DNA from: an uncultured Candidatus Saccharibacteria bacterium
GTDB taxonomy: Bacteria; Patescibacteriota; Minisyncoccia; Phycocordibacterales; PALSA-1337
Direction: 5' to 3'
Assembly: GCA_964542675.1 (NCBI GenBank)
Contig: CAZIUH010000002.1
Coordinates: 98-64,097 of the forward strand
DNA: 64,000 nt
Shown here piece by piece: positions 2,128 through 61,023 of the stretch (its first letter is position 1; each line of letters begins with the position of its first letter). A program made the translations under genes and the position numbers. The notes under the pieces are model-generated. The model did no database searches, was not told the origin of the DNA, and was given only the letters and a program-made list of their open reading frames with translations.

Positions 2128-2254
2128 TGGGAATGAATTATGGATTGTGAATTAAGAAAGCTAGCACCTATTGATTATACATAAGTAGCTAGGAAATGGA
2201 AGAAAAAAGGCGGGTGTCATAGAACATCCGCCATTTGAGCCGTTTCGCGTCATT

Positions 2255-2860
2255 TCAGCCCACCGATTCAATCTTTAGTGAAGTTATTGGAGATGGAATC
2301 GGCTTGAATGGCGATTTGGGCTTGATCTCGTGAGTTGAGGACTTTTTCGCGAGGACTTGAGCGCTTTTCACGCCGCCAGTCTGGGCGTTTAATTGTGGCA
2401 GAATACTCAAGTCAGGATGAAAATTTGCCTTGTTTTTATGCGCAACCGCTTTGTTCGGTGGATGCGCACGAGGGACGATCCCGGCCTTTTCCAACAAGAT
2501 ATAACTATCGGGCCGAGTGAATTCACTTGGATGGAAGACATGTCTCCACCAAAGTTCTGATGCGGTGAATCGTTTGTGGATTATTTTGTATTGATGGACC
2601 AATCCGCATACGCATACTCCCAGTATGTACGCGAAATACATTTTGCCAACGATATCATCATCGAAAGCGTCTGGGTCTTCCTCCATTATCTTGACTCGTT
2701 CAACCAATAGCCATCGGCCGCATTCGCATCGCCTGGTGAATTTTTTTATGAGCCGATACATTGTTGAAACCAAAAAAATAATTACGGCGATCGTGAGCCA
2801 CTGCCGTCCTGTAATATTGATTTGAATGTGCATTTTTTCTCCTATGTTTTCCAACACCAA
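2255..2860 (-). CDS. hypothetical membrane protein, one predicted TM, Cys-containing
   Basis: 201-aa ORF with a hydrophobic N-terminal segment and no recognisable family. It sits between ftsH and the ssrA scar region. Confidence 0.35.
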   Translation of the reverse strand: MVLENIGEKMHIQINITGRQWLTIAVIIFLVSTMYRLIKKFTRRCECGRWLLVERVKIMEEDPDAFDDDIVGKMYFAYILGVCVCGLVHQYKIIHKRFTASELWWRHVFHPSEFTRPDSYILLEKAGIVPRAHPPNKAVAHKNKANFHPDLSILPQLNAQTGGVKSAQVLAKKSSTHEIKPKSPFKPIPSPITSLKIESVG

Positions 2861-3007
2861 AATCTAACGGCATATTACTATTGAATATACATTTCGTCAA
2901 TATTTTTGATTACTGGATCCATAATAGTTTTAGACATCAAAAAAAACCAGCATCTAGCCGTAATTCAGAAAAAAGCGGCCCGCCATGAGCGAGCGAAGCG
3001 AGTCGAG

Positions 3008-3029
3008 TGGAGATGCTGGGAGTCGAAGC
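3008..3029 (-). repeat. direct copy of the ssrA 3' end (TGGAGATGCTGGGAGTCGAA), a tRNA-like fragment
   Basis: 21/21 nt identical to the tmRNA T-arm/acceptor 3' segment at 3183-3203. It lacks the 5' half of the T stem, so it is a fragment and not a gene. Confidence 0.6.
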
Positions 3030-3100
3030 TTACAGCTTCTGTACAGGTCTCACATTTTCTCGTCCCAATGTACATTGGGACTCGAAAATATGTTCGACCT

Positions 3101-3148
3101 CTTCGACTCCCAGACGCAAGTCGCGCAGGCGACTTGCTCATCTCCACA
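3101..3148 (+). repeat. inverted, interrupted copy of the ssrA 3' end
   Basis: TTCGACTCCCAG ... CATCTCCACA on the plus strand, with a 25-nt perfect hairpin (GCAAGTCGC/GCGACTTGC) inserted. Its tail forms a 20-bp perfect inverted repeat with the genuine ssrA 3' end. Confidence 0.5.
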
Positions 3149-3182
3149 AACAAAAATCACCCTTTCGGGCAGATTTTTGTTT

Positions 3183-3547
3183 GTGGAGATGCTGGGAGTC
3201 GAACCCAGGTGCAATCGAAGTTGATCGAACGATTCTACGGCGATAGAAATCTTTGAAGTTTAGAAGCCATGTTATGAAAGAAAACAAAACGCATAGCTTC
3301 GATCTCTAAGTTTCGGATAATACGACGAGAAATCGTACTACCCTACATCCAGGTAATAACGCCTATCCAGAAGGTCAGGATCCCCCTCTAGTAGACGCGC
3401 GCTTATACAAACGCGAATGCGAAGTCCTTGGCTCCGAAATACGGAGAAACAGAAGATTTAGCAATTAGGTTTTGCATCGGATTTATAAGTCGATACTGCT
3501 TACGCCGCACGAACAATAACATACGATTGTCGATGCCTTTCATCCCC
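3183..3547 (-). ncRNA. ssrA: tmRNA (transfer-messenger RNA)
   Basis: Minus-strand 5' GGGGATG pairs with 3' CATCTCC, including a G3:U70 wobble (alanine identity). T-arm CTGGG-TTCGACT-CCCAG, discriminator A. P2a-like pairing CAATCG/CGATTG. About 365 nt. Candidate tag ORFs end at TAA (...AKDFAFAFV* or ...AKPNC*). smpB lies immediately upstream on the same strand. Confidence 0.7.
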
Positions 3548-3552
3548 AGTGT

Positions 3553-3623
3553 GGAATTATGAATTGTGAATGGAAGCCGAAATTGACTATATTCATAATT
3601 CCTAATTCTTAATTCATAATTCG
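3553..3623. repeat. GAATTAN heptamer-array inverted pair between smpB and ssrA
   Basis: GGAATTATGAATTGTGAATGG and TTCATAATTCCTAATTCTTAATTCATAATTCG. Confidence 0.7.
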
Positions 3624-3628
3624 CGCTG

Positions 3629-4105
3629 TCAACGATCTTTCATAACTCTTCCCATCTCCCTATCACTCTCGCGGCGTTTCGTCGTTTCTCTTTTGTCATA
3701 CTTCCTTTTGCCGCGTACCGAAGCCACGCTTACCTTGATTCGGTTATTCACACTATAAGCCGAAATCGGTACTATTGTCAAGCGCCGACCTGCTTCAATG
3801 GTCGCCAGTTTTCTGATCTCATCCTTATTCAATATCAACTTCCTATTCCTCCTCGGTTCATAATCTCCCGGCGTGTTCTTTTCCTGATACGGCGGAATGA
3901 ACATATTCACGACATACGCCTCCCCACCGCGCACTATCACATACGCGCCATCAAACGAACCTTGACTTTTCTTCAATGATTTTACTTCGAACCCGAGTAG
4001 CTCTATACCCGCCTCGAATGTATCCTGGATTTCATAGTTGAATCGCGCTTTTTTATTGTCTATTAATATCGTCATGACAATATCATAATCGTAACATATT
4101 GACAT
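3629..4105 (-). CDS. smpB: SsrA-binding protein SmpB
   Basis: NKKARFNYEI, GIELLGFEVKSL and LILNKDEIRKL match SmpB hallmarks. The start may be the internal Met in MTILIDNKK. It is adjacent to ssrA. Confidence 0.85.
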   Translation of the reverse strand: MSICYDYDIVMTILIDNKKARFNYEIQDTFEAGIELLGFEVKSLKKSQGSFDGAYVIVRGGEAYVVNMFIPPYQEKNTPGDYEPRRNRKLILNKDEIRKLATIEAGRRLTIVPISAYSVNNRIKVSVASVRGKRKYDKRETTKRRESDREMGRVMKDR

Positions 4106-15711: not shown

Positions 15712-15808
15712 AAAATTAAAACGCAAAATGACATTGTGATATGTAAAATCGTTCCGTGATGTTATTTTTATTTTTGAATTGTGATTTTTCATTTTGATTT
15801 TTGCATTA
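15712..15808. repeat. second intergenic inverted-repeat family (degenerate), rpsE–rplO spacer
   Basis: AAAATTAAAACGCAAAATGACATTGTGATATG ... TTTTTGAATTGTGATTTTTCATTTTGATTTTTGCATT. Confidence 0.55.
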
Positions 15809-16612
15809 CTTTACTACCGTCCTCCCCCTTAAAATCACCTTTGTAATCTTCGACAAATTCTCCAGGGCAACAATTGTCGCTCTCGCTATATTCACCTTGT
15901 TCTTTGAACCTGACATGATTTTGGCACAAATATCCTTAATGCCAGCAAGCTCAATAACGGCGCGAGCCGAACTGCCGGCGACAACACCACTGCCGCGCGC
16001 CGGAAAAACTTTTATGATAGCACTGCCAAATTTACCTTCCACAGCATGGGGAATAATCATTTGCGGCGAAAGTGAAACTTTTATAAGGTGTTTTTTTGCT
16101 TCGCGCACGGCTTTCTCTATGGAAAGCGCCGTATCAGAACCTTTACCAAGCCCGACACCGACACGTCCTTTATGGTCACCGACCACGGCCGCAACACTGA
16201 AAGTGAATCTGCGTCCGCCGGCAGCCACGCGAGTCACACGGCGAATATCAATAGTCTTGAAATCAAATTCTGGTTTGACGCGCTCCCTGCTTTCTCCACC
16301 GCGTCCACTATCCCTGCCTCTGCCACCTTTCGGAACATCTGAACCTCGCGTACCGCCTCTCCTGGCGGAATCACGCATACGTCTGCCTGGAGTTATTTTA
16401 CCGCGCGCGACAATTGGAACGACAACTGGCGTGGCAACAGAAATAATTTCGCCATCTGCAATATTGGGAATGACGATGTCATCAGCACCAACAGATCCCG
16501 TGATTTCTTCAGCGACAATGGATTCCATGGCTTCTTCGTCTGTCATAATAGGCAAAGCGACAGCGCTTGTATTTGCGTCTTCTTTATTGATTTTTGTATT
16601 ATCGTCTTTCAT
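15806..16612 (-). CDS. rpsE: 30S ribosomal protein S5 (N-terminal extension)
   Basis: RVTRVAAGGRRFTFSVAAVVGDHKGRVGVGLGKGSDTALSIEKA...GSGVVAGSSARAVIELAGI. There is no rpmD (L30) between rpsE and rplO. Confidence 0.9.
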   Translation of the reverse strand: MKDDNTKINKEDANTSAVALPIMTDEEAMESIVAEEITGSVGADDIVIPNIADGEIISVATPVVVPIVARGKITPGRRMRDSARRGGTRGSDVPKGGRGRDSGRGGESRERVKPEFDFKTIDIRRVTRVAAGGRRFTFSVAAVVGDHKGRVGVGLGKGSDTALSIEKAVREAKKHLIKVSLSPQMIIPHAVEGKFGSAIIKVFPARGSGVVAGSSARAVIELAGIKDICAKIMSGSKNKVNIARATIVALENLSKITKVILRGRTVVK

Positions 16613-16613
16613 A

Positions 16614-16645
16614 TTCCTAATTCATAATTCTTAATTCATAATTCA
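16614..16645. repeat. GAATTAN heptamer array (rplR–rpsE spacer)
   Basis: TTCCTAATTCATAATTCTTAATTCATAATTC. Confidence 0.7.
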
Positions 16646-16999: not shown

Positions 17000-17056
17000 T
17001 GTATTATTTGATTGAATTATATTTTGTTGTTTATTGTGTACAATTCATAATTCCTT

Positions 17057-21579: not shown

Positions 21580-21648
21580 GAATTATGAATTACGAATATA
21601 CATTCTACTTCATTGTTTTATATTCATAATTCGTAATTCTTAATTCAC
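21580..21648. repeat. GAATTAN heptamer-array inverted pair (rpsQ–rplN spacer)
   Basis: GAATTATGAATTACGAATA ... TTCATAATTCGTAATTCTTAATTC. Confidence 0.7.
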
Positions 21649-25387: not shown

Positions 25388-25473
25388 ATTGAATTGAATT
25401 ATAAATTAATTATGGATAAACTCATATCTTCTTGTTCTTTTTTCTTAATTCGTAATTCTTAATTCGTAATTCT
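25388..25473. repeat. GAATTAN heptamer-array inverted pair (rplV 3' end–rpsC spacer), partly coding
   Basis: TTGAATTGAATTATAAATTAATTATGG ... CTTAATTCGTAATTCTTAATTCGTAATTC. The latter encodes the L22 C-terminal tail. Confidence 0.65.
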
Positions 25474-47274: not shown

Positions 47275-47329
47275 AAATTATGAATTACGAATTAACACAA
47301 GAAAATTTATTCATAATTCTTAATTCGAC
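47275..47329. repeat. GAATTAN heptamer-array inverted pair (rpsL–rpsG spacer)
   Basis: AAATTATGAATTACGAATTAAC ... TTCATAATTCTTAATTCGAC. Confidence 0.7.
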
Positions 47330-52202: not shown

Positions 52203-53977
52203 GACTGCATAATAACTTCTACAATCCTAAGTCGCAACTCTGCCCTATTCATGAACATAGATTTTTCCAGAGACGCCACAAGATCGATTACCCTATTTCC
52301 TTCAAAATTTTTCGCCCATACGCTTTCGGCGCCGAAAAACGAAATTGCCGGAATCTTCTCACCATTTTTTTTCTTGAAAATAAGTTCAATATGATCGTTT
52401 CCTTTTCCAAATCGGCGTACCGAGACCGGCATTACATTTTTGAACAGGAAAATTGGCTTCGGATTTCCTTTCCCGAAAGGTGCCAATCTATCAATATCTT
52501 TGAATAGATTCCAATTCACTGAATCAAGCATAAGTTCCGCGTCAATATAATTTTCATCTAAATCTAATAACTGTCCAGAAATCCCTTCCCCATTCAAGTT
52601 TTTTTGATTCATAATTCTTAATTCATAATTCTTTGCAAATGCCTCATTCAAATATTTATCCAGAAAATGTATTTGCTCACCACTGACTGTGAATCCACCC
52701 GAATGCCTATGACCACCCATTTGCGTGAACACTCCTTCAGGCATCGCTTTCATGATTTCCATCATATTTGTTCGTCCTTCCGAACGGCAAGATCCCTTGA
52801 TCGCGTTATCGCCGTCACGACCCCAGAGGAATACGGGACGGTTGAATTCCTGCGCACATGTGTTGGCGACTAATCCCAATAATGACGGCCGCCAGGCGGG
52901 ATTTCCTAGAACAATCACATTCGGGGGTGAATTTATTTCAATTTCACCAAATCGTTCTTTAATAATCTTTCTTACTTCCTTGACCAGAGCCGCGACAACT
53001 CCCTTGCGTTCACTATTGATACCATCAAGATGCGTGACATAATGATTCGCATCTTCATCATTGTCGGCTGATAATAGGTTAAACGCGTCCATAGGCACGC
53101 CCATTCGAGACGCGGCATTGATACGGGGCGTTATCATAAAACCAACATCATCTTCGGTCAGATATTTCTGATTAATTCGTAATTTTTCAAGAAGTCGTTT
53201 CAAACCTTTTCTTTGACTTTTGCGTAAAACCGACATGCCGTAATACGCGAATACTCTATTTTCACCGGTAAGTGGCACCATATCCGAAAGAGTGGCGATA
53301 CCGACCATATCAAGAAACCATTTTTCATGCCCTTTTTTCAAACCAAATCGATCTTTCGCGAGAATTGCTTGAATAAGCTTGAAAGCCACGGCCGAACCAC
53401 AAATATTTTTGTCAGGATACGCGCAATTGGTTTGTTTATGATCAATAATCGCGTACGCCATTGGTAATTCAGTAGGCGGTTCATGATGGTCAGTAATTAT
53501 TACGTCCATAGTCAATTTGTTCGCACACGCGACTGCCTTCATATCGGAAATTCCGCAATCAACTGTTATCAAAATTTTTACACCCTCACTCGCCAACCGT
53601 TTAACAGCTTCCACATTCAAGCCAAAACCTTCGTCATGGCGATGCGGAATGTAAATAGAAAAATTCTTGTAACCAATTCTAGCGAAAAAGTCGTGAAAGA
53701 TGACGGCGCCGGGTATGCCATCGGCGTCATAGTCGGAATATATGGCTATTTTTTCATTACCTTTTATCGCATGAATGATTCTCCCGACAGCTTTTTCCGC
53801 GTCTTTTAATAGAAATGGATCATGGATATCGCGTTCATATTCCGGTTCCAAGAATTTGTTCGCGTCCGCGCTCGTCGTGATACCACGATGGAACAATAAA
53901 TGCGAAAGTAGTCGCGAATATCCGACCAGCTGTGCCTGCTCTTCATTCGAGAGTTGACGGTGAATCGAGTATTGCAT
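52199..53977 (-). CDS. recJ: single-stranded-DNA-specific exonuclease RecJ
   Basis: DHH motifs ([14 protein letters not shown]) and DHHA1. 592 aa. Confidence 0.85.
52608..52631. repeat. GAATTAN heptamer array inside the recJ coding sequence
   Basis: TTCATAATTCTTAATTCATAATTC, translated in recJ as ...NYELRIMN... Confidence 0.6.
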
Positions 53978-59152: not shown

Positions 59153-60939
59153 GGTCCCATCAATATTTGTGTTTCTCGCCAGTTCAAATCCGAGCCGATC
59201 GTAACTGAAGTTAAATTGGTAGAATAACCCGATTTTGACACCTCAATATTATAATCCCGCGCCAATAGACCCGTAAAAATAACTTGACCGGAGGGCACGC
59301 AATTTGAAGTGTAAGTAAAAGCAATATCGGAAATATTCGGCGAGACCGTTTCATCATCGGTGGCGAGATAGACGCGATATCTGGCATATCTGTCAGCATT
59401 ATGAACAGAGTTCAAAGAAGAATTTGAAGCGAGATAATAACTCGCGTCCGTGCCGTCAGGACCCTTGAATTTCCAAGTTGTCGTTGCCGTATTCGTGGCA
59501 TTCGTGGCAAATTGCATTCGCACGCTATTTATCCCCGCAAGAATCGGTTGATCTATAGGCGACCAAATCAGAGAAAAGAAATTACTGATTGAACCCGTGT
59601 CAAAGGTGGATGATTCAAGAATACCGCTTTGATTGTATTCATCAAACGCGCCGCGCAATCTGATCTGTCCAGCCGTCGTCGTAACATCAATGTTACCGTC
59701 ATCAGAAAAATATTTCGCTTTGTTGGAAAAATCCACTTCTCCAGAACCAGAAGACCAATCCGTTTGTGAGAGATATCCTTGTCCCGTTACCAATGTTCTT
59801 CCGGATTCTTCACCTTGATACAATCTGACGGTCGCGCCGGAAAGTGGCAATTGAGTGGTACTATCTTTGACCGTCACAACCAGACCTTTTTCTTCCTTCG
59901 GCGTCACTATCATCTGAATATTTTGTGAACCACCGGGATTCACGGCCACGAAATTCAATGGATTTATTCCTGACAAGAATCGTGTCGCATCATTCGAGGA
60001 AATGTTGTATGAATCCCATTCCATGGAGTTCAAGTCGAAAATCCCGGAGCTATTCGTCGTCATATTCTCGCTATATTTCGGAATATTTTCACCGATTTGT
60101 TTTGAACCGACCATCTTGAATCCAAAATTTGAAGCTGGTTCGCATGTTGGCGATACGGCGGAAAAATGGATAGTACTCAATCGATCGATCGCGAAACTCA
60201 CTTGCGTTACCCGTTGAAGCAAGATCGTTGAATCTGGTTTCGTAGGATTTGGATTGGATGGATCGCTTATCGGATATGTTCTGTCAGTGGAATAGCCACT
60301 TTTCGAAACAATAATCCTATAAGCATTGTCTCCGGGTGGAACGTCGACGAGTTGTAGCATGCCATTTGCGTCGGTTACATCATCGATCACAATAGTCGTA
60401 CTTGTCGCCACATTCACGACATGCACGGAAGCACCTTGAACAGGTTGGCCATTTGCGTCGAAAACGCGAATGAACAGCGCGCCGTTGACCGAGGCTGTTT
60501 CCAAATTTTTTGGCGCGACTTGCCCGACAAGCGTGATCGGCTGCATATTCTTGCAACCATCGCATGAAACTTCGACTTGAACCAGTTTATTATCCGCCGG
60601 AGAAAGATCACTCGGCGTACCACCGATGATGCCGTCGAAAGGTAGATCAATATTGCGTACTGTCGTTGTCACCGTGAATGTGATTCCTCCCCTCGTCAAG
60701 TTTTGTATGCGTGGAATATTTCCATTCGGAATACCGCCCACCACCCCAACCACGGCATAAGGCATATTCCGCGCGATTTCGAATTGTTCATTAGCGAGGT
60801 CCAATGCCAGCACTTTATTTTGATTGAGCGCGATAAGTTGGAACAAAGAAACATACGCGTTGTACGCGGCAATAGCGATAATCACGAAAACCGCCGTACC
60901 GACCAGAACTTCAACTAATGTGAATCCTTTTTTATTCAT
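59149..60939 (-). CDS. large type IV pilin-like protein (596 aa)
   Basis: MNKKGFTLVEVLVGTAVFVIIAIAAYNAY prepilin N-terminus, followed by a roughly 560-aa Thr/Ser/Gly-rich beta domain. Confidence 0.7.
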   Translation of the reverse strand: MNKKGFTLVEVLVGTAVFVIIAIAAYNAYVSLFQLIALNQNKVLALDLANEQFEIARNMPYAVVGVVGGIPNGNIPRIQNLTRGGITFTVTTTVRNIDLPFDGIIGGTPSDLSPADNKLVQVEVSCDGCKNMQPITLVGQVAPKNLETASVNGALFIRVFDANGQPVQGASVHVVNVATSTTIVIDDVTDANGMLQLVDVPPGDNAYRIIVSKSGYSTDRTYPISDPSNPNPTKPDSTILLQRVTQVSFAIDRLSTIHFSAVSPTCEPASNFGFKMVGSKQIGENIPKYSENMTTNSSGIFDLNSMEWDSYNISSNDATRFLSGINPLNFVAVNPGGSQNIQMIVTPKEEKGLVVTVKDSTTQLPLSGATVRLYQGEESGRTLVTGQGYLSQTDWSSGSGEVDFSNKAKYFSDDGNIDVTTTAGQIRLRGAFDEYNQSGILESSTFDTGSISNFFSLIWSPIDQPILAGINSVRMQFATNATNTATTTWKFKGPDGTDASYYLASNSSLNSVHNADRYARYRVYLATDDETVSPNISDIAFTYTSNCVPSGQVIFTGLLARDYNIEVSKSGYSTNLTSVTIGSDLNWRETQILMGP

Positions 60940-61023
60940 AATTCATAATTCGTAATTCAAAGGTTTATCAAAAAAAAGTTTGTGACCTAGTATTATGAAT
61001 TATGAATTATGAATTATGAATTA
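60935..61023. repeat. GAATTAN heptamer-array inverted pair (pilC–pilin spacer), with a 4x tandem TGAATTA
   Basis: TTCATAATTCATAATTCGTAATTC ... TATTATGAATTATGAATTATGAATTATGAATTAA. Confidence 0.75.

Follow-up and report, generated by a model that had tools for sequence, protein, structure and literature searches.

A structured non-coding unit at the tmRNA gene's 3' end in an uncultured Patescibacteria genome and its relatives

The gene of the transfer-messenger RNA (tmRNA), ssrA, is a classic docking site of genomic islands, and the occupants known to us are gene-carrying islands that bring their own integrase. Here, we analysed the ssrA locus in a stretch of 64,000 nucleotides from an uncultured bacterium of the Patescibacteria (contig CAZIUH010000002.1; the whole stretch is called the window below), where a short non-coding unit with duplicated pieces of ssrA lies just 3' of the gene. 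Islands at tRNA genes show, by the Islander definition, a displaced 3' fragment of the target gene and an identity block that starts in the T-loop (PMC4383910). The ssrA islands of Dehalococcoides have a 20-bp repeat, are inserted mid-T-loop, form tandem arrays, and use a large serine recombinase as integrase; some of them were proposed to be cis-mobilizable elements (CIMEs), i.e., att-flanked elements without recombination genes that are moved by a neighbouring or incoming integrase (PMC3146451).

The unit resembles the islands at ssrA and tRNA genes (those of Islander, the Dehalococcoides ssrA islands, and the tycheposons) in that the element regenerates the 3' end of its target, leaves a displaced direct repeat of 18-21 nt with an identity block from the T-loop, and occurs in tandem arrays whose older copies decay. 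However, those islands are kilobases long and carry cargo and an integrase, either of the tyrosine type or of the serine type such as DsiB, whereas the unit consists of 155 bp plus the repeat, is free of genes, and has an inverted copy of the putative att sequence and conserved hairpins. It shares with CIMEs the att-like repeats at a tRNA-type site, the lack of an integrase, and the tandem arrangement with other units and recombinase-bearing islands (seen at the related locus L020). The flanking repeats are candidate att sites, and genes are absent from the unit. Yet CIMEs are varied deletion derivatives of kilobase size, whereas the units are uniform, tiny and structurally conserved.

An insertion at the 3' end of ssrA

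In the window, ssrA lies on the minus strand at 3183-3547, and the 21 nt at its 3' end (GTGGAGATGCTGGGAGTCGAA) occur twice, as exact direct repeats at 3183-3203 and 3007-3027 on that strand (two matches, 0.00 expected). The proximal copy makes up the functional T-loop, the 3' strand of the T-stem and the 3' strand of the acceptor, and the identity block starts at the first T-loop base of ssrA. An earlier note on this DNA had seen the perfect distal copy, one base off its true place (at 3008-3028), and had taken the duplicated 3' fragments as marks of past insertion or excision. Related loci, which we number with an L, bear this out. In L027 the end of the tmRNA (...CTCCAC) is immediately followed by TCGACTCGCTTCGCTCGCTC, whereas in the window this sequence (2987-3006, 20 of 20 positions identical to L027 and unique in the window) follows the distal repeat and not ssrA. 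Flanks homologous to that of the window also come directly after ssrA in L031, L034, L036, L038, L039, and L056, which together with L027 represent the empty site.

Since the ancestral flank lies beyond the distal repeat, positions 3028-3203 (one repeat copy plus 155 bp, 176 bp in all) are extra DNA. By this comparison, a 176-bp non-coding insertion is shown to have regenerated the 3' end of ssrA. From the T-loop to the 3' end, the unit provides a perfect substitute, together with a terminator of its own, so that ssrA stays intact, and the original 3' end has been pushed outward, where it stands as the distal repeat beside the old flank. Both the intact target gene with its displaced 3' fragment as direct repeat and the empty sites are features of islands. 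If the unit arrived by att-type integration, the proximal repeat is the copy that the element brought. The ancestral flank (TCGACTCGCTTCGCTCGCTC..., 2960-3006, minus strand) holds a second terminator-like hairpin (2978-2994) followed by a T-run. The junctions predicted from this arrangement are GGGTTCGACTCCCAGCATCTCCACTCGACTCGCTTCGC for the empty site and GAAGCTGTAAGCTTCGACTCCCAGCATCTCCACAAACAAAAATCTGCC for an excised or tandem form (body, repeat, terminator).

Read on the tmRNA strand, the unit begins with a bidirectional terminator-like hairpin at 3148-3182, made of an A-tract, a GC stem (3158-3171; 3171-3158 in the terminator scan) and a T-tract. There follow an inverted copy of the acceptor 3' strand of the tmRNA (3139-3147, minus strand, 9 nt, GTGGAGATG on the tmRNA strand), a 25-nt hairpin with a 9-bp stem and the loop CTGC that we call hp1 (3114-3138), an inverted copy of the T-loop and the T-stem 3' strand (3101-3113, minus strand, 13 nt, CTGGGAGTCGAAG), the body (3029-3100, minus strand), and the distal repeat. 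The hairpin hp1 falls precisely at the junction of inverted acceptor and inverted T-arm; the earlier note had described this interrupted inverted copy well, except that it ends at 3147 and not at 3148. The inverted acceptor also takes part in a perfect 20-bp hairpin (3139-3158 with 3172-3191), whose outer parts are the acceptor 3' strand of the tmRNA and its inverted copy, and at whose centre lies a terminator-like stem with a T-run behind it.

In the body, stem Pa (3096-3100 with 3045-3049) encloses a hairpin at 3051-3092, after which come UAC and a 5-bp hairpin with a GUA loop (3026-3038) that overlaps the distal repeat. This structure is based on RNAalifold and on a covariance-model alignment with L020, L100, L102, L104, L201, L127, L188, L133, and L105. 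According to the fold prediction, the distal repeat pairs with 3101-3113 and 3139-3147 and so closes the element; the 141 nt at 3007-3147 form a single closed multi-hairpin fold (-83.5 kcal/mol, z = -12.9 against shuffles). Every repeat and stem of the copy in the window is perfect. Consensus and terminator scans gave no promoter match within the unit, which is bracketed by two terminators of the same strand, and no open reading frame (ORF) with a homologue was found in the 155 bp between the repeats; the unit contains no genes.

The sequence of the locus is identical base for base in ten contigs that were independently assembled from several samples. Hence, it is not an assembly artefact; with 100% identity, the sibling contigs are uninformative on variation. 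In two contigs of other samples (JGI 3300028162; Logan SRR8437243), the sequence stops at 3115-3116, at the junction of hp1 and the inverted T-arm, possibly through low coverage, hairpin-related sequencing loss or a structural variant.

The relatives with an empty site (L027, L031, L034, L036, L038, L039, and L056) have, 0-600 nt past ssrA, a small GIY-YIG nuclease-like ORF that is preceded by a structured leader. In this leader, the final three bases of the tmRNA take part in a closing stem (CACUCGACUC...GAGUCGAGUG), and there are also a variable hairpin and the motif CUCGCUCGUGGYAARCCAC. Only ~45 nt of the leader are retained in the window (the remnant at 2960-3006), which lacks the GIY-YIG ORF. 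Leader and ORF may be a second kind of element specific to the end of ssrA.

A family of structured units beside ssrA

The insertion belongs to a conserved, structured and ssrA-specific family that is not in Rfam. The comparison with related genomes that the earlier note had in mind did turn up elements at the ssrA 3' end elsewhere: homologous non-coding units of 140-210 bp lie just 3' of ssrA, single or in tandem, in ~30 genomes and metagenome contigs. Each has a terminator, an inverted copy of its own tmRNA 3' end, a covarying hairpin with a CTGC loop, and a structured body, the hairpin equivalent to 3148-3182 being present in every member. Around 25 of these tmRNA loci were added by scanning metagenomes for the pattern CATCTCCAC-N25-55-GTGGAGATG, and in most of them the inverted T-arm stands exactly 25 nt after the inverted acceptor. 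Among the variants, L176 has two identical tandem units in which the hp1 loop carries a 30-nt insertion. In three further loci selected by the search pattern and not Patescibacteria-like in appearance (L103, L158, and L180), the tmRNA terminator stem extends perfectly into the 9-nt acceptor 3' strand, and there is neither hp1 nor an inverted T-arm.

The hairpin hp1 covaries strongly. Across 29 distinct copies, 96.5% of the cells pair and both partners have changed in eight of the nine pairs; the covariation score is 0.868, compared with 0.224 in shuffles (0 of 500 reach it), and collapses when the partners are slid. The loop is CTGC in 22 of the 29 copies. The inverted T-arm differs from the tmRNA of its own genome at 0.9 positions per 12 nt, and from those of other genomes at 3.4 (permutation p<1e-4), and unusual T-loops are mirrored in their inverted copies. 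The inverted copy is thus no accident of rearrangement, but a family-defining part that matches each genome's own tmRNA.

A comparable match is known from the retroviral primer-binding site, which is complementary to the 3' end of a host tRNA. The inverted copy is likewise an exact complement of the acceptor and T-arm 3' strand that tracks the host sequence, but it is split by hp1, reaches the complement of CCA only via the palindrome, and has no reverse transcriptase nearby. Group II introns have been reported to be absent from Patescibacteria.

Two types of bodies occur. The window type (window, L020, L100, L102, L104, L105, L127, L133, L188, and L201) has stem Pa, which covaries, the motif UACYG, and, just before the direct copy, the 5-bp hairpin with the GUA loop, which covaries too. 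Type A reads CGGAGC-AUG-hairpin...GGGGUCG-hairpin-CGUGACC. Inspection by eye found neither hammerhead nor kink-turn nor loop-E motifs in the bodies. When the window region and 35 related loci were scanned against Rfam 15, by gathering score and by E-value, only tmRNA and tRNA matched, and no match lay outside the tmRNA-derived parts of the unit; what was left were chance-level miRNA-type matches and weak matches to permuted tmRNA, the latter due to the tmRNA 3' end itself.

Type-A bodies were also seen away from ssrA, in the form CGGAGC...GGGGUCG...GUGACC with two hairpins and conserved G:U pairs. They follow tRNA-Ile(UAU) and its terminator in L031, L035, L043, and L106, and in one case (L196, 206-314) the terminator of a protein gene; neither hp1 nor flanking repeats accompany them.

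The distribution of the units is patchy. In 39 Paceibacteria loci that were gathered through SmpB, and are hence unbiased for the element, units are present in six (the window, L020, L035, L041 with two, L050, and L084 with two) and absent from 33. The close relatives L023, L024, and L025, which have the same T-arm as the window, lack them. The hp1 module is intact in four of these 39 related species-level genomes, and the copies in L035, L050, and one of those in L084 (L084a) are degenerate. We searched the window and 81 loci (L001, a sibling contig, and 80 found through SmpB; 632 kb) with a covariance model of the hp1 module, which matched only 3' flanks of ssrA (window, L001, L020, L041, and L084). 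Hence, the element is site-specific and not dispersed. An inverted T-arm copy was found downstream of tmRNAs and of a single tRNA-Arg (L041) among the 123 tRNA and tmRNA genes examined. In being small, non-coding, hairpin-forming and intergenic near terminators, the unit is like miniature inverted-repeat transposable elements (MITEs) and the Correia, RUP, ERIC, and REP sequences. However, these are dispersed in many copies with short target duplications, whereas the window has a single unit in 64 kb, at ssrA, with a 21-nt duplication of a gene end, and all matches in the 632 kb are at ssrA.

Tandem arrays of two to three units, often of mixed body types and with decaying outer copies, were found in L041, L084, L102, L105, L133, L163, L176, L186, L195, and L111. 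In L020, ssrA is followed in turn by a unit, a repeat, a 130-nt piece of a serine-recombinase gene, a truncated unit, and a repeat. Such a layout fits newer insertions landing beside ssrA, which is also the logic of tycheposon arrays. L104 and L163 have tmRNAs that are 78% identical and different body types beside ssrA, a difference that indicates turnover. The identity of hp1 is uncorrelated with that of the tmRNA (r=0.03), from which recent horizontal spread was considered; however, whole units diverge by 55-70%, similar to the tmRNAs, and this parallel leaves no clear signal of transfer.

Proposed integration and its alternatives

Our preferred, still tentative, reading of these sequences is that the unit is, or was until recently, a small non-autonomous integrative element specific to ssrA. 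To enter, an att-like copy of the tmRNA 3' end that the element carries would recombine with the same sequence in ssrA, the recombinase being encoded elsewhere, and each new arrival would land beside ssrA and displace older units outward. Such integration is supported by the insertion and duplication relative to a conserved flank, by the identity block from the T-loop, as at known att sites in ssrA and tRNA genes, by the patchy distribution (six of 39 loci), tandem arrays and turnover of bodies, and by the strict site specificity in a clade whose recombinases target the 3' ends of ssrA and tRNA genes.

The weakest step of this scheme is the recognition of a folded single-stranded substrate, in which the closing helix with a protruding hp1 would act like the attC of integrons or the attP of CTX phage; alternatively, conversion within the long palindrome would keep the inverted copy identical to ssrA. 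Integron attC and CTX-phage attP(+) are recombination sites that act as folded single strands. Such sites are imperfect palindromes of 60-150 nt that conserve structure over sequence, have a variable tip, and form arrays behind a fixed site. By analogy only, the unit shares these traits with attC and attP(+), as it does the inverted core copies at the two ends that pair into a duplex with protruding features. It is unlike attC in that it has no link to intI or Xer and no R-box or L-box consensus, its cores are 21 nt of tmRNA, and hp1 is a 9-bp hairpin in place of extrahelical bases. The attC core GTTRRRY is absent from the sequence, and the gene upstream is smpB, not an integrase.

The 3' ends of ssrA and of tRNA genes are active targets for this clade's recombinases. 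In L016, L022, and L044, genes of large serine recombinases (Pfam) border ssrA and read antisense into its 3' end, and a family of >1,900 homologues is centred on Patescibacteria. Islands with such recombinases lie at ssrA in L260 and L264, and, in a locus without a tmRNA call (L263), next to smpB. The window's own genome encodes a 513-aa large serine recombinase abutting tRNA-Ile(UAU), just outside the window, past its position 1 (within L001 14128-16458). In L001, a sibling contig of 71 kb, this ORF runs on the opposite strand into the 3' end of tRNA-Ile(UAU), a helix-turn-helix gene comes next, and a 117-nt inverted duplicate of the 3' coding end of the recombinase lies upstream of the gene (15760-15876). 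The 64-kb contig ends at this region, which suggests a variable mobile element. The island of L260 (4137-9849) has genes for a terminase large subunit and an FtsK-gamma domain and looks like a prophage or satellite.

Several observations count against integration. No recombinase gene was found in the units or consistently near them. In the serine-recombinase islands at ssrA, a distal repeat was not detected within 10 kb and the hp1 module is lacking, so that their link to the units, as parents or helpers, is circumstantial. A tyrosine integrase is present near the units only in L166, for which no distal repeat was found, and tblastn with it gave no other copy in the loci collected or the window, so that a tyrosine integrase as regular neighbour was rejected. 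We found no excised, plasmid or phage copy of the unit. A phage or plasmid attP was considered, but the exact 21-mer matches in IMG/VR only phage-encoded tmRNA-like genes with a full T-arm, and a search there for the palindromic acceptor pattern gave no hp1 module. A double-stranded circle of 176 bp is an implausible substrate for recombination, and type-A bodies follow tRNA-Ile(UAU) without flanking repeats. Moreover, hp1 and the inverted copy are intact across hosts with ~59% tmRNA identity, and the distal repeats have often decayed. That the inverted copy outlasts the distal repeats points to a long-maintained pairing with the tmRNA 3' end, which integration does not require; either selection on this pairing or palindrome conversion would keep it matched. 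As the unit contains no integrase, we file it as a variant of site-specific integration at ssrA, outside any named family.

The main rival, of rather low probability, is that the unit is a structured RNA kept by the host, read through on the tmRNA strand from the very highly expressed promoter of ssrA (or of a tRNA). The 22-nt antisense segment split by hp1 would then pair, in cis or in trans, with the tmRNA's 3' end, the unit's own 3' copy being a competing partner. Such pairing would govern how the 3' end is processed, receives its CCA or is charged, or would label read-through transcripts to be cleaved. Covarying helices and conserved single-stranded motifs (the CUGC loop, UACYG, and the GUA loop; CGGAGC/GGGGUCG/GUGACC in type A) argue for an RNA, as does the fold, whose stability is greater on the tmRNA strand for 12 of 12 type-A bodies and five of eight window-type units. 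The antisense segment tracks its own tmRNA across hosts that are ~59% identical in tmRNA, and type-A bodies also follow tRNA-Ile(UAU) and its terminator. Two same-strand terminators around a promoter-less unit are expected of a read-through RNA and leave read-through from ssrA as its only way to be transcribed. However, the unit sits behind a good intrinsic terminator, its patchiness, absence in close relatives and decaying tandem copies are unlike a needed cis-regulator, and the helix closed by pairing to the distal copy has often disappeared. The G:U pairs assign the strand clearly for type-A bodies and weakly for the window type (4 against 1); hp1 has no bias of G:U over A:C (4 against 5), so that a constraint on DNA or on both strands fits better.

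Rather improbable is the view that the units are a new class of promoter-less, gene-less cassettes for the tmRNA gene that are defined by structure. They would serve either as attC-like recombination substrates, folded as single strands and docking at ssrA, or as RNAs whose guide, split by hp1, pairs with the acceptor and T-arm of the tmRNA and so tunes trans-translation in Patescibacteria. Under both options, the inverted segment would be matched in a programmable way to the tmRNA 3' end of its host.

The earlier note regarded the locus as a likely integration scar. The repeats do bracket inserted DNA, but the window holds an intact member of a conserved structured family and no decayed remnant. 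An inert scar, i.e., a larger island at ssrA that was deleted almost wholly and left its att-flanking repeats and hairpins without function, is unlikely. Direct repeats of the ssrA 3' end do surround a short non-coding stretch, decayed remnants exist in arrays (the recombinase fragment and truncated unit of L020; L035, L050, and L084a), and such remnants are described in the tycheposon literature for elements targeting tRNA genes. Yet random deletion would hardly leave one architecture of 140-210 bp in ~30 lineages, with covariation at eight of nine hp1 pairs, an inverted copy kept matched to each host tmRNA, and, in the window, perfect repeats and stems throughout.

We consider it very unlikely that template switching during replication at the terminator hairpin (quasi-palindrome correction) made or keeps the palindrome, the rest being unrelated intergenic DNA. 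The inverted copy continues the terminator stem unbroken, acceptor-extended tmRNA terminator stems exist outside the family (L103, L158, and L180), and the even counts of G:U and A:C in hp1 fit a process at the DNA level. But the distal direct repeat beside the old flank, an hp1 with conserved loop at the same junction, and the conserved bodies and arrays are left unexplained; template switching cannot stand alone, and is possible only as a homogeniser of the inverted copy. A DNA inversion switch between the inverted, TCGA-containing T-loop copies (3192-3203 and 3101-3113), giving a tmRNA with hp1 between T-stem and acceptor strand as a possible off state (flipped junction CACCTGGGTTCGACTCCCAGACGCAAGTCGCG), is extremely unlikely and was rejected: the geometry permits it, TTCGA has a palindromic central CG, these genomes commonly encode serine recombinases, and the two contigs of other samples stop at 3115 and 3116, but these ends are not at branch points of the k-mer graph and the flipped state occurs in 0 of ~30 instances.

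The tmRNA gene, its neighbours and the meaning of the units

The tmRNA is the sole RNA gene in the window (ARAGORN, 3183-3547, minus strand), and no tRNA gene was called in positions 1-64000. Rfam RF00023 matches it over the full length (3181-3547, minus strand, model positions 1-374) with 97.2 bits (E=1e-36; the gathering score is 47). It is a standard one-piece tmRNA with its mature 3' end at A3184, and the minus-strand gene of ~365 nt that the earlier note had reconstructed at 3547-3183 is thereby confirmed. The RF00023 alignment shows the acceptor and T-arm as given there: GGGGAUG/CAUCUCC, 7 bp with the G3:U70 wobble and discriminator A, and CUGGG-UUCGACU-CCCAG with a loop of the GUUCGANUC type. 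Of the CCA, only the first C is encoded. Score, tRNA-like domain, tag frame and SmpB partner are all those of a tmRNA. The tag reading frame with its stop (3403-3462, minus strand, gene positions 86-145, ARAGORN) encodes AKSSVSPYFGAKDFAFAFV*; translation resumes at an Ala codon, and the C-terminus ahead of the stop is hydrophobic. This tag had been thought non-canonical, but the family AKS(S/T)VSPYFGAKDFAFA(F/L)V is conserved among related Paceibacteria, with AKSTVSPYFGAKDFAFALV and close variants called in ~15 of them (including L017, L019, L020, and L023-L028). By this sequence comparison, AKSSVSPYFGAKDFAFAFV is normal for the lineage.

Directly upstream of ssrA, as the earlier note had it, is smpB (3629-4075, minus strand, 148 aa, Pfam PF01668, E=1.4e-46). 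An upstream ATG at 4105 gives the 158-aa form that is called in public assemblies, and this exact product is present on 12 contigs. Its nearest relatives are in the Patescibacteria/Paceibacteria, near Candidatus Taylorbacteria, with ~70% SmpB identity. A consensus scan gave a sigma-70-like promoter match upstream of ssrA (TTGACA-16-AAGAAT, 3605-3632, minus strand). Arrays of the heptamer GAATTAW surround this promoter-like site, and one pair of arrays flanks it. Arrays of two to four tandem copies, often as inverted arrays that face each other, occur in ~9 intergenic places of the window (2135-2152, 3554-3622, 16613-16644, 17036-17053, 21580-21646, 25448-25472, 47275-47326, 52607-52631, and 60934-61021; 23 matches against 0.28 expected), and L196 holds similar GAATGAA arrays. 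They may be a regulator-binding or promoter-associated repeat.

On the other side of the unit, the ORF at 2255-2860 (minus strand) encodes a hypothetical protein of 192-201 aa with a promoter-like site at 2872-2900. It matches no Pfam family, and among 5.8 billion proteins it has a single homologue, whose gene stands in the same order, smpB-ssrA-ORF-ftsH. The gap between smpB and the ORF is 548 nt in that contig and 795 nt in the window, too short in the former to hold the unit, which is therefore absent from the closest syntenic relative. The idea that this membrane protein was leftover cargo does not hold, as the ORF lies outside the repeat-bounded segment and beyond the ancestral flank, has its own promoter-like site, and keeps its synteny where there is no room for the unit.

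The occupant of ssrA described here is a gene-free and strongly structured unit of 150-200 bp that recurs across Patescibacteria, hosts with tiny genomes whose small RNAs and mobile DNA are little known. Fragmented assemblies and partial 'pseudo-tmRNA' matches behind ssrA are explained by the units, they yield covariance models that can be run on complete genomes, and the tag peptide of the lineage is now fixed. If the units are mobile, they would be smaller than any other site-specific integrative element seen at a gene of the tRNA type and would imply an undiscovered helper enzyme. If they are RNAs, they would be an unrecognised partner or regulator of tmRNA, and such a guide would tune trans-translation.

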